A stretch of DNA of 61,027 bases, the filler included, from Chloroflexota bacterium (GTDB lineage Bacteria; Chloroflexota; Chloroflexia; QHBQ01), in NCBI GenBank assembly GCA_043754535.1. It is 5 parts of 4 records of this genome, joined end to end, with 100 filler letters (N's around TTAATTAATTAA, not from the genome) between each part and the next. Parts side by side here need not be neighbours in the genome. Positions count along the whole stretch, not along the records: positions 40,034 to 51,058 come from JAYUUN010000093.1; 4 more parts are not named here. One strand, 5' to 3'. The translations under genes were made by a program, and so were the position numbers. The notes under the pieces are model-generated. The model ran no database searches. It worked only from the letters and a program-made list of their open reading frames with translations, and had not been told where the DNA came from. This document shows positions 10,080-51,158 of the stretch, in pieces; position 1 is the first letter of the stretch, and every line of letters begins with the position of its first letter.

Positions 10080-10179
10080 NNNNNNNNNNNNNNNNNNNNN
10101 NNNNNNNNNNNNNNNNNNNNNNNTTAATTAATTAANNNNNNNNNNNNNNNNNNNNNNNNNNNNNNNNNNNNNNNNNNNN
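10080..10179. other. artificial contig linker
   Basis: N44-TTAATTAATTAA-N44 (stops in all six frames). Confidence 0.98.
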
Positions 10180-20244: not shown

Positions 20245-20344
20245 NNNNNNNNNNNNNNNNNNNNNNNNNNNNNNNNNNNNNNNNNNNNTTAATTAATTAA
20301 NNNNNNNNNNNNNNNNNNNNNNNNNNNNNNNNNNNNNNNNNNNN
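20245..20344. other. artificial contig linker
   Basis: N-TTAATTAATTAA-N. Confidence 0.98.
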
Positions 20345-39933: not shown

Positions 39934-40033
39934 NNNNNNNNNNNNNNNNNNNNNNNNNNNNNNNNNNNNNNNNNNNNTTAATTAATTAANNNNNNNNNNN
40001 NNNNNNNNNNNNNNNNNNNNNNNNNNNNNNNNN
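39934..40033. other. artificial contig linker
   Basis: N-TTAATTAATTAA-N. Confidence 0.98.
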
Positions 40034-47396: not shown

Positions 47397-47783
47397 CTAC
47401 TCTGCCACCGCGTCCTGCTCGGCAAAAAGCTCCTGGGCCAGATAGGCAGCGTTCAGGGCGGCAGGGAAGCCCGCGTAGACGGCCATCTGGATGATTATCT
47501 CGACCAACTCCACACGGCTACAGCCAACGTTGAGCGCAGCCGCCATATGAAACTTTAGTTGGGCGGGCGCGTTGCCCAGAGCGGTCAGGGCGGCAACGGT
47601 AGCTATCTCACGGCTCTTTAGCTCCAGGCCAGGGCGGGAGACAACATCGCCAAAGGCAAACTCGACGGTGTAGCGGGCCAGGTCGGGAGCAACAGCATTC
47701 AAGCGGTCTACTACTCGCTGCCCGCCCACCGCATCCAACTGCGCCAGCGTACGCCAGCCGCGTTCATAACGATCTTCGTTCAT
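47397..47783 (-). CDS. carboxymuconolactone decarboxylase family protein
   Basis: EFAFGDV.SRPGL..REIATVAAL, HMAAALNVG, YAGFPAA. Confidence 0.88.
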   Translation of the reverse strand: MNEDRYERGWRTLAQLDAVGGQRVVDRLNAVAPDLARYTVEFAFGDVVSRPGLELKSREIATVAALTALGNAPAQLKFHMAAALNVGCSRVELVEIIIQMAVYAGFPAALNAAYLAQELFAEQDAVAE

Positions 47784-48351
47784 CCGCTACCTCCTTGAGG
47801 CTGCTAGCTGCGCGTCGCCCCTTCTTTGCTGCGGTACGGCGGGGGCGGCCCACCCGCCGCGAGCCGTCGTCCAACACTGCCGCTGGTTCAGCAGCCAGCT
47901 TCGGCTCCTCCAACGACTCTAGCTCCTGGCGCAGACTGCCAATGTCGCGGAAGTTGCGGTAGACGCTGGCGAAGCGGATGTAGGCCACATGGTCTAGCTT
48001 ACGCAGCTTCTCCAACACCAGTTCGCCGATCATCTGGCTGGGAACTTCGCTCTCCCCCGTGCGGAAGATGGTCGCTTCGATCTCGTCAACCATGTTGGTG
48101 ATCGCTTGCCTGCTGATCGGTCGCTTGGAGCAGGAGATCATGATCTTCTCCAACAGCTTCTCGCGGCTGTACTCCTCGCGGCGGGTATCCTTCTTGATTA
48201 CCGCAATGCTGACTGGCTGCACCCGCTCGTAGGTGGTGAAGCGTTGACTGCAAGCCATGCACTCGCGGCGACGGCGGATGCCATCATTGTCGGCAGTGTC
48301 CCGCGAGTCGATCACCCGCGAGTCGTCCTGGTGGCAGTAGGGACAGCGCAT
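47764..48351 (-). CDS. nrdR: transcriptional repressor NrdR
   Basis: MRCPYC..VIDSR..IRRRRECMACSQRFTTYE, ATP cone, AYIRFASVYR. Confidence 0.96.
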   Translation of the reverse strand: MRCPYCHQDDSRVIDSRDTADNDGIRRRRECMACSQRFTTYERVQPVSIAVIKKDTRREEYSREKLLEKIMISCSKRPISRQAITNMVDEIEATIFRTGESEVPSQMIGELVLEKLRKLDHVAYIRFASVYRNFRDIGSLRQELESLEEPKLAAEPAAVLDDGSRRVGRPRRTAAKKGRRAASSLKEVADERRSL

Positions 48352-48457: not shown

Positions 48458-48529
48458 AGACTACATCTTGGGTTTGGGGACGACTAAAAGCACAAGATAA
48501 AGGGTATCACAAGATGTTGTGTCTGTCAA
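48458..48529 (-). promoter_or_regulatory. NrdR boxes overlapping the nrdR operon promoter
   Basis: 16-mers AGACTACATCTTGGGT (48458), GCACAAGATAAAGGGT (48490), TCACAAGATGTTGTGT (48507) resemble acaCwAtATaTwGtgt; TTGACA-17-TACCCT. Confidence 0.75.
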
Positions 48530-48534
48530 GGGGT

Positions 48535-48750
48535 TTATCCACAAATTGCCCCTCTTATCCACCAGAATCAGGGGGTTTGTCCACAAACGACCGCTGCAAG
48601 CTGGCAAGCGCACAGAATGGTAGAACACGTGTACTATTCTTCACATTTTGGCAAATTGGTGGCGGCTACCTATTGCATTTTGGCAGAAAATGAGTATAAT
48701 GTGGATAAGTGGGGTGCAAAGTGGGGAAAAGTGGGGAAGAAAGTGGATAA
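48535..48750. promoter_or_regulatory. cluster of DnaA-box-like 9-mers
   Basis: TTATCCACA 48535, TTATCCACC 48555, TTGTCCACA 48577, TGTGGATAA 48700, AGTGGATAA 48742. Confidence 0.65.
48673..48750 (+). promoter_or_regulatory. dcw promoter with MraZ-binding GTGG repeats
   Basis: TTGCAT-16-TATAAT followed by GTGG at 48701, 48709, 48721, 48731, 48743. Confidence 0.7.
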
Positions 48751-48774: not shown

Positions 48775-49058
48775 GAGTTTAGGGGCCATCTAAACTCCAG
48801 GCGACCACAGCACCCAGCTAGCCACACAAGGTCGTACAGCTTGCTGGTGGGTGAAGGGCAGGGGCCATCTGACCGCTCATCCTAACCAGCACTTGCGACC
48901 AATAGCGTCGGTGCCGACCGCAGACCAGCGGCCTGCTGCTCAGGCGAGGGGAGAGGGGCCATCCTCCCCCCTCCGAGAGGGGAGCAGCCAGCCGCCATAC
49001 AGATCGAGAAGCCGGTGAGCGGGTGAGGGGCCATCCTCCCCCACTCTGCCGGTCTTCT
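48775..49058 (+). ncRNA. structured mraZ leader: four hairpins with a shared AGGGGCCAUC apex
   Basis: Identical 10-mer at 48781, 48860, 48954, 49026, each capping a different complementary stem. Confidence 0.7.
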
Positions 49059-49094
49059 TTGTCTAGAATGTTCTAGTTTTGAGGGGAAGAAGCG

Positions 49095-49523
49095 ATGTTC
49101 CTCGGCTCGTTTGAACACACTATGGATGCTAAGGGGCGGCTGGCGATACCGGCTCGGTTTCGCAACTCGCTCGGCAGCACCGCAGTGCTTACCCGTAGCC
49201 CCGACCACTGCCTCTACCTCTTTCCAATGGATGCCTGGAACAAGCTGGCCGAACGGCTCAGTCAGTTGTCGCTGGCCGACCGCAACGCCCGCAATATGCA
49301 GCACTTCTTCTTCGGTGGGGCTAGCGATGTGGAACTGGATGCTCAGGGCCGAATCGCCGTGCCAACCATGCTCCGCCAGCACGCTGAAGTCGAAGGCGAC
49401 ACGGTGGTGGTGGGCATGAACACCTACATCGAAATCTGGGCCAGGCAGAAGTGGCAGAACCTTGAAGCACAGGTCAGCGAGGACATTGACAACATCTCGG
49501 CCCAACTAGTTGGGTTGTTCTAA
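49095..49523 (+). CDS. mraZ: transcriptional regulator MraZ
   Basis: MFLG.FEHTMDAKGRLAIP, DAQGRI, IEIW. Confidence 0.96.
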   Translation: MFLGSFEHTMDAKGRLAIPARFRNSLGSTAVLTRSPDHCLYLFPMDAWNKLAERLSQLSLADRNARNMQHFFFGGASDVELDAQGRIAVPTMLRQHAEVEGDTVVVGMNTYIEIWARQKWQNLEAQVSEDIDNISAQLVGLF

Positions 49524-49584: not shown

Positions 49585-50526
49585 ATGCACATCTCGGTAC
49601 TGTATGCAGAAGCGTTGGCGGGGCTGAACATCCGGCCTGGTGGTCGTTACGTTGACGGCACGCTGGGGGCGGGCGGCCATGCAGGGGGTATGCTTGAGGC
49701 TAGTGCGCCAGACGGCTTGCTGCTGGGCATAGACCTTGACCGCAGCGCGATGGCGTTGGCAGCGGAGCGATTGCAGCCGTTCGCTGCCCGCTATCGTCTG
49801 GCCCAGGGCAACTTCGCGCAGATGACAGAGCTTGCCGCCAGCACATGGGGCTGGGAGGCGGGGGAGGTGGACGGCGTGCTGCTCGACCTCGGCCTCAGTT
49901 CAATGCAGCTTGACCAGGGAGAGCGCGGCTTCTCCTTCCGCACGGACGCGCCACTGGATATGCGGATGAACCAGTCCGCAAGTGGCGGGCCAACTGCCGC
50001 CGACCTGCTAGCCGACCTCGACGAGGAGGAGCTTGCCAACCTGCTCTACGAGTATGGCGAGGAGACAGCTAGCCGCCGAGTCGCCCGACGGATCGTAGCA
50101 GCCCGCAAGGAGCAGCCGATCACCACTACCGCGCAGCTAGCGGGAATCGTCAGTGACGCACTGGGCGGCAAGGTAGCGGGGCGCACGCGCAACCCGATCC
50201 ACCCAGCCACCCGCAGCTTCCAGGCTCTGCGGATCGCCGTCAACCGCGAGTTGGAGACGCTGCCCCAGGGTTTGCAGGCGGCCATGCGGCTGCTGAAGCC
50301 AGGGGGCAGGCTGGAGGTGATCAGCTTCCACTCGCTGGAAGATCGCGCCGTCAAGCAGTTTATGCAGCGCGAGGCGGGCGGCTATGTGGAGGGCAGCATC
50401 TACGCGCATGAGCGGCCAGCGACGCTCAGGCTGCTGACGCGCAAGCCGACAGTGCCGGGTGAGCAGGAGGGGCGCGACAACCCCCGCGCCCGCAGCGCGA
50501 AACTGCGGGTAGCCGAGAAAATCTAG
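49585..50526 (+). CDS. rsmH: 16S rRNA m4C1402 methyltransferase
   Basis: HISVL, DGTLGAGGH, DLGLSSMQLD, FQALRIAVN, ISFHSLEDR, NPRARSAKLR. Confidence 0.96.
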   Translation: MHISVLYAEALAGLNIRPGGRYVDGTLGAGGHAGGMLEASAPDGLLLGIDLDRSAMALAAERLQPFAARYRLAQGNFAQMTELAASTWGWEAGEVDGVLLDLGLSSMQLDQGERGFSFRTDAPLDMRMNQSASGGPTAADLLADLDEEELANLLYEYGEETASRRVARRIVAARKEQPITTTAQLAGIVSDALGGKVAGRTRNPIHPATRSFQALRIAVNRELETLPQGLQAAMRLLKPGGRLEVISFHSLEDRAVKQFMQREAGGYVEGSIYAHERPATLRLLTRKPTVPGEQEGRDNPRARSAKLRVAEKI

Positions 50527-50654: not shown

Positions 50655-51058
50655 ATGGCCGTCCAGTCTATGGGGCTACCGCGCAACCGACGCGACGACT
50701 CCCTCTCTGCTACGCGGGTACGCACCCGCCGCCAACACCTGCCTCGCTACCTCGAACTGCACCCGGCAGTGCGCTACTTGCTGGCGGTTGCGCTGGTCTG
50801 CGCGATCAGCCTGCTTTATCTGATGCAGACTAGCCAGGTCGCCAGCCAGTCCTACCGCCTGCGCGCATTTGAGGCGCAGCGTAACGCGGTGGTGCGCGAC
50901 AACAACCGCCTGCAACTGCAAATCGCCGAACTCAAGTCCCGCACCCGCATCCAGCAGATCGCCCGCAACAAGCTGGGCATGGTACCACTGGGCAAGAACG
51001 TGATCTACGTGCTGGTAGACGACCGCGCGACCAACACCAGTGCCGAGGCTCCGCCGCA
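50655..51058 (+). CDS. ftsL: cell division protein FtsL-like, 3'-truncated
   Basis: TM plus coiled coil, RIQQIARNKLGM; position after rsmH. Confidence 0.8.
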
Positions 51059-51158
51059 NNNNNNNNNNNNNNNNNNNNNNNNNNNNNNNNNNNNNNNNNN
51101 NNTTAATTAATTAANNNNNNNNNNNNNNNNNNNNNNNNNNNNNNNNNNNNNNNNNNNN
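51059..51158. other. artificial contig linker
   Basis: N-TTAATTAATTAA-N. Confidence 0.98.

Follow-up and report, generated by a model that had tools for sequence, protein, structure and literature searches.

The window analyzed here is a 61,027-nucleotide stretch (filler included) of a 3.87 Mb Chloroflexia genome, G000, in which several contigs are joined across N gaps at positions 10080–10179, 20245–20344, 39934–40033 and 51059–51158. The mraZ leader lies on contig C93, between the divergent neighbor nrdR (47764–48351, minus strand; Pfam Zn_ribbon_NrdR and ATP-cone) and, on the plus strand, mraZ (49095–49523; PF02381, E 3e-39), mraW/rsmH (49585–50526; PF01795, E 1e-103) and an ftsL/divIC-like gene (50655–51058; PF04977) that ends at the assembly gap. 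Because the contigs are joined across N gaps, genes past 51059 are not genuine neighbors of ftsL; ftsI to ftsZ carry on in contig C21. ARAGORN output for this genome includes calls of tRNA-Pyl (cta) and tRNA-SeC.

The mraZ/dcw promoter, TTGCAT-16-TATAAT (48673–48700, plus strand), puts the inferred transcription start near 48707, 5′ of all the hairpins described below, and its -10 element stands 400 nt from the mraZ start. The first-pass annotation of this DNA, which read the leader as a four-hairpin regulatory RNA, had named a start downstream of the hairpins as fatal to its proposal; the inferred promoter instead lies upstream of all four. A consensus promoter scan did not flag the element, the -35 of which matches at three of six positions; the form TTGCNN-16-TATAAT/TAAAAT is kept in all 29 leaders that have a -10.

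An MraZ operator, recognized by its pattern, occupies 48701–48750 (plus strand; GTGG boxes at 48701, 48709, 48721, 48731 and 48743), and GTGG boxes upstream of mraZ are conserved throughout the order. Three 9-mers nearby we take to be DnaA-box-like with a corresponding presumed function, namely TTATCCACA and TTATCCACC (48535–48563, 5′ of the promoter) and TGTGGATAA (48700–48708); GAAC-N4-GTAC at 48623–48634 is presumably a LexA-box-like site, with similar text 5′ of mraZ in other leaders, and two 16-mers at 48495–48535, upstream of nrdR, are presumably NrdR-box-like. Together these NrdR-, DnaA- and LexA-box-like sites would make up a dense replication/SOS control region shared with the dcw promoter. 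The MraZ site has been described as GTG(G/T) boxes with 6-nt spacers (PMC12957436); a reading of the hairpin loops as additional MraZ boxes was rejected, GTG being absent from the loops. Leader L214 (G140) holds a frame of ~125 codons between the MraZ boxes and mraZ.

Four hairpins in the mraZ leader and their relatives

The sequence AGGGGCCATC recurs four times on the plus strand, at 48781, 48860, 48954 and 49026 (spacings 79, 94 and 72), as first annotated. The whole window holds no other match with one mismatch allowed; the shuffled window, searched with one mismatch, gave a mean of 6.2 matches, so that the clustering and not the count is the signal. The leader contains four of the 14 exact copies in G000, and only 2 of 5000 dinucleotide shuffles of the leader reached four copies of any 10-mer. 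Its folding energy is -181.3 kcal/mol (z -4.07; 0/100 shuffles as good), and the GCCA core is unpaired in all four copies (ensemble probability 0.99–1.00). Each copy forms the apex of a different hairpin in the ~390-nt leader, which bears out the earlier description; the accompanying statement that the loops are identical holds for their sequence and fails for their register, as the loop of copies 1 and 2 is GGGCCAU (7 nt), or GGCCA if a G.U pair closes it, and that of copies 3 and 4 is GGCCAU (6 nt), or GCCA with a G.U closing pair.

By folding, all on the plus strand, h1 (48775–48797) pairs GAGTTTAG with CTAAACTC beneath a GGGCCAU apex, h2 (48830–48900) is a long irregular stem with the same apex, and h3 (48930–48991), which has a basal stem, and h4 (49002–49063) are capped by GGCCAU; h3 and h4 resemble a local duplication. 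A CGAGAGG(G) internal loop on the 3′ side of h3 (48974–48981, plus strand) is invariant in all five leaders of the family to which G000 belongs. After h4 there is a weak U-rich tail, TCTTCTTTGT (49053–49062), where the terminator scan made no call. The Shine-Dalgarno-like UGAGGGG of mraZ, identified by sequence (49080–49086, plus strand), is complementary to the C-rich 3′ arms of h3 and h4.

We compared 126 mraZ leaders: 35 usable ones from the 40 genomes of the order, and 91 from outside it (90 of 276 other matching phylum genomes, plus G040). The order comprises the family of G000, f1 (five genomes; genus g1, including G000 and G001, and genus g2, three genomes), its sister family f3 (nine genomes) and a third family, f2 (26 genomes); the leaders missing from it are two in f3 cut by contig ends and three in f2 genomes where mraZ was not found. 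The unpublished genome G012 contributes one of the seven f3 leaders, one row of the A3 alignment and one of the seven mraW sites discussed below; the unpublished G007, G015 and G034 count toward the f2 negatives, and G078, G171, G208 and G304 figure in the phylum tallies alone.

Hairpins with a GCCA apex are present in 5/5 leaders of f1 (in 4, 4, 2, 2 and 2 copies) and in 0/23 of f2, 0/7 of f3 and 0/91 outside the order. In 13 of the 14 f1 hairpins, the loop can be read as GGCCA straight after a G.U or G-C closing pair. In the three g2 genomes, the loops read GGCCAAA or CGGCCAUA and the stems differ, 10 of their 48 consensus pairs showing double changes; a five-way f1 alignment is poorer (11/40, with many broken pairs). 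The sense strand folds clearly better than the antisense in all three g2 leaders (-138/-88, -142/-99 and -127/-106), and about equally well in G000 (-170 vs -172). The conservation and covarying stems that relatives had been expected to reveal were thus found, in all five f1 genomes, and the conclusion stands that the dcw leader, with its conserved loops on variable stems, contains an RNA structure under selection.

In f3, the positional equivalent is a hairpin with the loop CCGUCAC, present in 7/7 leaders and mostly single-copy. Its stems show double changes at 6 of 22 pairs (n = 8 hairpins; 0/500 shuffles), among kin that are not independent. A 13-mer of the f3 leader occurs nowhere but in the mraZ leader in 5/5 genomes, and a U-run follows the last hairpin in 7/8 f3-type leaders and in none of g2.

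Wider scans extended the survey. Among named records, the GGCCA-loop leader type is seen in L149, L155, L160 and L169 (Chloroflexia/Chloroflexi bacterium). A metagenome scan gave 16 loci and no new f1 member except two identical to the query protein. A collection-wide pattern scan returned 27 stretches, including four f1 leaders, four Ktedonobacteraceae leaders with GGGCCATCG in the stem, which are pattern-selected, and one Pelolinea hairpin with apex GGGCCAUU, the relatives of which show other loops. The reverse complement of the g2 loop, GATTTGGCCCC, occurs in the hairpin-less f2 leaders L012, L014, L015 and L017; their close relatives read GATTTGACAG, so its presence there is probably chance.

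A third leader type came to light in Ktedonobacteraceae: a long hairpin with an (A/C)GGGAGA(A) apex and a UGGGGA / AGGGG internal loop (L088, L089, L096, L107 and L190; L147, L157, L164 and L167). GGGAGA-loop leader hairpins are present in 5/16 leaders of the Ktedonobacteraceae-like f30, and four named Ktedonobacteraceae leaders are alike. The two such leaders scanned had no Rfam match. A search for a terminator complementary to the GGGAGA loops, a weak test of 26 hits of one pattern in five genomes, gave no partner.

A putative sRNA with complementary loops in a par-rep-like cassette

Among the ten copies of AGGGGCCATC that G000 has outside the leader, one caps a perfect hairpin at C10:7397. 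On the minus strand, this hairpin reads as a U-tailed terminator with the loop AUGGCCC, and a conserved TTGACA-17-TATCAT promoter stands ~170 nt upstream; promoter and terminator delimit a putative sRNA of 163–190 nt (C10:7380–7550, minus strand, outside the window). Its terminator loop is the complement of the leader GGGCCAU in 5/5 f1 genomes, where it sits on two unrelated stems, and is the sole UGGCC apex among 168 terminator-like calls in G000. In f3, the terminator loop is instead GUGACGG (8/8 loci), the exact complement of the leader CCGUCAC. Of the 24 pairs retained in the sRNA alignment, 16 show double changes, and in 10 of 11 loci the terminator region folds better on the minus strand. 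Elsewhere in G000, intergenic hairpins after minus-strand genes at C28:28008 and C70:27504 have minus-strand loops that resemble the sRNA loop (GGAUGGCCGU and AAUGGCCGC); the top extra hairpins, on C28, C70 and C128, were judged by eye.

The f3 and g2 loci were found via the neighboring protein and not via RNA sequence, and the idea of complementary loops predates that protein-guided search. BLAST with the sRNA region returned G001 only, and nucleotide searches failed outside genus g1; the exact complement of the g2 loop gave no hairpin partner, and the resulting reading of ‘no partner RNA’ was overturned by the protein-guided search, which gave a g2 sRNA with the loop AUGGCCC. The same sRNA–protein arrangement was found in 13 genomes, the neighbor gene being present in 5/5 f1, 8/9 f3 and 0/26 f2 genomes; in G012 (f3, 85% complete), the leader hairpin is present and the sRNA locus was not found. 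In f2, the protein, its profile and strong hits of an RNA model all gave 0/26 (the first pass of the model scored just 65 candidates per genome), and the best RNA-model match, at 25.6 bits, is a generic terminator. The RNA model is strong in the same 13 genomes, 10 of which are its training rows. The neighbor protein was found in 0/300 other phylum genomes, and a homolog of its gene in 0/22 of f30.

The sRNA is counter-transcribed between parB and the initiator-like winged-helix gene. In G000, the latter encodes an orphan 582-aa winged-helix and DnaA_N-like protein (C10:7804–9552, or L265:1501–3249, outside the window); across loci the protein has 530–670 residues, and its resemblance to a winged helix at the N-terminus and to DnaA_N at the C-terminus is weak. 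Pfam HTH_36 and DnaA_N both fall below their cut-offs, making initiator identity weak; matches in the PDB are ArsR/MarR-type HTH proteins at E 0.009 or worse, and Atlas neighbors give, as leads only, HTH_36, and RP-C or DnaD_N on 25% of the members of two clusters. Database homologs number only eight, and a 42% identical one is labelled ‘Candidatus Chloroheliales bacterium’. The protein may represent a new family of replication initiators, confined to two families of Chloroflexia. Iteron-like repeats inside the gene (6, 7 and 5 copies) flank an AT-rich core, where the 60-nt GC minimum is 0.32–0.52 vs medians of 0.62–0.75 in 4/4 genes.

In 12 of the 13 loci, parB lies upstream on the strand of the protein; in the remaining one, G003, the contig stops at the sRNA. 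parA precedes parB in G000 and G002; the scanned frames of G006 and G008 did not include it. The parB–sRNA distance is 0.5–0.9 kb in f3 and about 2 kb in f1, where other genes fill this interval of about 2 kb in four genomes. The initiator-like gene of G000 has a promoter-like TTGACG-17-TATAAT of its own downstream of the sRNA; its own promoter and the intervening genes weaken the case for copy control in cis.

In G006, the cassette lies on contig C2 (2.61 Mb), which has 30/47 tRNAs, 1/5 class II synthetase matches and the best-scoring parB, with dnaA, mraZ and rpoB all located off it. That share of tRNAs and that parB set it apart from a gene-poor chromid; on the matter of a separate replicon, GC skew was uninformative, and so was a check of the contig ends, which showed no overlap. 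The contig would fit either a main-chromosome piece or a core-gene-rich second chromosome of the type seen in Chlorohelix, for which two core-gene chromosomes have been reported (PMC10972752). Full-length rpoB is present in two copies in G006 (C3 and C6), and likewise in G016 and G020.

Proposed loop–loop pairing and competing explanations

Pairing energies were computed for naked duplexes, without unfolding cost. So computed, the sRNA apex pairs with h1 over 11–12 bp (-23.7 kcal/mol), with h2 over 14 bp (-29.3 kcal/mol), with h3 as an 11-bp perfect complement (-25.6 kcal/mol) and with h4 at -25.6 kcal/mol (range for h1–h4, 11–14 bases). The f3 leader–sRNA pairs span 9 bases at -19.4, and cross-family pairs reach -11.9 to -18.7. 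The terminator-loop:leader-loop match is the top accessible complementary run in nine of ten genomes and the second in G002; G022 has both parts and lies outside this ten-genome matrix. A finer match is seen as well, with AGGGG in g1 leaders facing CCCCU in the sRNA and GGGGG (hairpin A) in the leaders of G002 and G004 facing CCCCC. In g2, the leader loops gained AA with the sRNA loop unchanged, which leaves 6–8 contiguous pairs, and the G003 leader shows no preference for its own sRNA (-16.5) vs that of the sister family (-16.6).

In f1, the sRNA has a second loop, CCUCUCAYA. It is matched by the invariant GAGAGG internal loop on the 3′ side of h3 (7 bp in G000, where each side is unpaired at about 0.86), by GUGAGAG in the loop of the first hairpin of g2 and, within genus g1, by the Shine-Dalgarno sequence of mraZ. 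The second match in f3 is weaker (GGUUAAG with CUUGACC, -8.6, in 3/5). The chance of a specified 7-mer is ~6e-5, counted as one evolutionary event, and a switch in only two families amounts to one independent contrast. The switch holds without the unpublished genomes, as G006, G008, G010, G014, G020 and G022 have both parts.

Taken together, a model for the leader emerges. We consider it probable, at roughly 0.7, that the four hairpins are tandem docking sites for the unlinked putative sRNA, the two RNAs pairing by 7-nt loop–loop kissing, with the CCUCUCAYA–GAGAGG/GUGAGAG contact assisting. Kissing had been proposed from the outset, as self-pairing of the GGCC palindrome; kissing itself remains likely, and the partner would be another RNA in trans, because the f3 loop CCGUCAC cannot self-pair (-0.3 kcal/mol) yet has a complementary sRNA loop. 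Tandem hairpins that kiss one another through GGCC in the manner of guanidine-II, possibly in response to a ligand, appear distinctly unlikely: GGCC is self-complementary at -8.7 to -9.3 kcal/mol, copy numbers in f1 are even and identical tandem loops have precedent (PMC5558903), but the mostly single-copy f3 equivalent is not self-complementary, and the sRNA match and its switch would be left unexplained.

Less likely still is functionless shared descent, in which the hairpins would derive from the sRNA terminator by inverted copying, or from a dispersed repeat, followed by local amplification. The duplication-like h3 and h4, and a match reaching 2–3 nt into the stems, would suit such an origin; past the apex, however, the sRNA and leader stems are unrelated, and the leader stems show compensatory change while the loops stay invariant. 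Nor are GGCCA loops enriched across G000 (71/16723, or 4.2 per 1000, vs 3.5–5.4 in nine controls), and the f3 13-mer is confined to the mraZ leader in 5/5 genomes.

Complementarity to the sRNA extends into the operon. A possible fifth, bulged site lies at about codons 12–17 of mraW (49619–49634, plus strand; -19.6). It is near-perfect in f3 (about codons 13–17; -23.8 to -26.4 in 6/7 loci), ranges from -9.1 to -16.3 in 21 f2 loci and is absent from the three g2 genomes; no complement was found in the mraZ–mraW spacer. In f3, a hairpin over about codons 11–19 of mraW repeats the leader loop as CCGUCAYC (seen in L011, L021, L133, L134, L137 and L037), within the lineage-specific residues LAV(T/I)PGG. 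A synonymous-codon test of the mraW hairpin gave mean z values of -1.2 in f1 (5), -1.9 in f3 (7) and +0.7 in f2 (21), and -0.26 in G000 itself. The f3 loop also resembles what we take to be the 16S rRNA stretch beside the RsmH target; that reading was dropped because the f1 loop lacks the likeness and the sRNA explains both loops.

The multivalent protein-binding sites suggested by the first-pass annotation survive as a minor rival, which we regard as improbable. The initiator-like protein, or MraZ, would bind the loops in the same sense in the leader and in the parB–rep transcript, and complementarity to the sRNA would be a by-product of its being antisense to the plus-strand transcript. In favor of this, the leader's loop also caps a predicted hairpin on the plus strand of the sRNA locus, the loop recurs within f3 mraW, and protein and hairpins co-occur. 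Set against this, promoter, U-tail and G.U pairs all mark the minus strand, the specificity of the protein would need to change from GGGCCAU to CCGUCAC, and the second loop pair (CCUCUCA with GUGAGAG/GAGAGG) fits RNA–RNA pairing too.

Returning to docking, both loops of the mraZ leader recur on the plus strand of the parB–rep spacer, which makes the leader look like a mimic of the cis target of the RNA. A step further removed from the data, the sRNA may control the copy number of a repABC-like origin cassette as an antisense RNA, and mimics of its natural cis target in the dcw leader would couple dcw transcription to initiator expression. Granted docking, it is about an even chance that the leader serves mainly as a decoy titrating the sRNA, and somewhat less than even that the sRNA represses or processes dcw mRNA; both may hold at once. 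We prefer the decoy on two counts: i) the sites number 1, 2 or 4 and lie 45–310 nt from the start codon or in mraW, and ii) the f3 sites sit atop a putative terminator, at which a short leader RNA would be released.

A bolder proposal, which we hold tentatively and think rather doubtful as a whole, is that the dcw leader offers decoy loops that titrate an antisense copy-control RNA belonging to a domesticated origin of plasmid type. Transcription of dcw under MraZ, DnaA and LexA control would then license a second origin, or dosage of the RNA would gate division; compensatory loop switches would have re-keyed the system between families. Should this be true, the loops of the mraW RNA and of the Ktedonobacteria leaders would also dock partner RNAs yet to be found, and should the par-rep cassette be an active origin, the arrangement would be a new way to coordinate replication with division.

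Comparison with known systems

Rfam gave no match for the leader, the leaders of relatives or the sRNA loci, and we found no earlier description there or in the literature, in which subscription journals were thinly covered. In Actinobacteria, mraZ lies just upstream of the mraW RNA motif. The first-pass annotation had placed that motif at the equivalent locus, which does not hold: it is listed directly upstream of mraW and not of mraZ (PMC3890552, PMC5784534), as one long hairpin with a CUUCCCC loop in Actinomycetales (PMC2864571, supplement 5). The mraW RNA (RF01746) is likewise found in the dcw operon and likewise joins a short, invariant loop to a long stem that varies; it differs in its loop (here GGCCA(U/AA)), in its place (here upstream of mraZ, in Chloroflexia) and in that the cited accounts describe no partner RNA for it, whereas a complementary sRNA loop is found here. 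Its best scores in G000 are 14.5–15.4 bits, elsewhere in the genome, vs a cut-off of 50, and no mraW RNA-like motif was found in the mraZ–mraW spacers. In the Acidimicrobiia L153 and L162, a very long hairpin with a C-rich loop stands between mraZ and mraW, possibly a distant mraW RNA variant. For the orphan mraW RNA class, the present case supplies a hypothesis: seek a complementary terminator loop.

The closest functional parallel is UpsM of Rhodobacter sphaeroides, a 268-nt mraZ leader with an intrinsic terminator, with which the trans-acting sRNA StsR pairs to alter dcw output (PMC5089854, PMC8266604). Both systems combine a long mraZ 5′ leader with a trans sRNA, putative in the present case; a comparison made through Rfam gave no link by model or sequence. 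StsR is a stress-sigma sRNA and the sRNA here belongs to a par-rep cassette; UpsM/StsR depends on cleavage involving Hfq and RNase E, and it has neither the tandem identical loops nor the pairing through an sRNA terminator loop proposed here. The 2016 description termed UpsM-type leaders exclusive to Rhodobacteraceae (PMC5089854), beyond which the present leader would extend RNA control of the dcw operon. UpsM also pairs with mraY and ftsW (PMC8266604), and the G000 mraY has GATGGCCCC at its MAP codons; that the leader acts in trans on mraY is nonetheless scarcely credible and largely refuted, since the same-genus G001 and G002 read ATGGCTCCG at that place and hairpin-less f2 genomes often read ATGGCCCC. 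mraY is tandemly duplicated in G009, G013, G017, G023 and G027, one copy reading MSPLHNH/RSPLHNH instead of MAPLHHH.

Two further RNA systems share parts of the design. The trans loop–loop recognition of rot and coa mRNA by 3′ hairpins of S. aureus RNAIII (PMC4691137) is alike in that multiple sites are redundant, a further contact falls within the coding region and the Shine-Dalgarno sequence is masked; the redundancy lies in the sRNA loops there and in the target loops here, and the sequences are unrelated. Guanidine-II RNAs likewise have two or more identical self-complementary loops, a feature confined here to f1, but their ACGR tetraloops and Rfam match are absent.

The cassette itself recalls repABC, where repC, the initiator gene, contains the origin and the initiator is kept in check by an antisense RNA encoded between repB and repC (PMC6090056, PMC3155836). 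The order parA–parB–antisense RNA–initiator, the terminator stem-loop and an AT-rich region inside the initiator gene (a candidate origin here, in 4/4 genes) are shared with the repABC counter-transcribed RNA (RepE/incA), which at about 50 nt is shorter than the 163–190 nt seen here; the initiator here is not of the RepC family and has iteron-like repeats, and the cited repABC descriptions contain no trans target on a dcw leader of the kind proposed. Exact-complement loops that switch together point to a previously undescribed RNA link between replication control and cell division, and make this a rare sRNA–target pair read from genomes through a whole-loop compensatory switch between unlinked loci. 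The nearest counterpart in purpose is Vibrio crtS, a main-chromosome locus that licenses a plasmid-type origin and ties it to the cell cycle (PMC6090056); crtS is a DNA site acting on an initiator protein, whereas the link proposed here would be RNA–RNA and, under the more tentative reading given above, an all-RNA counterpart of crtS.
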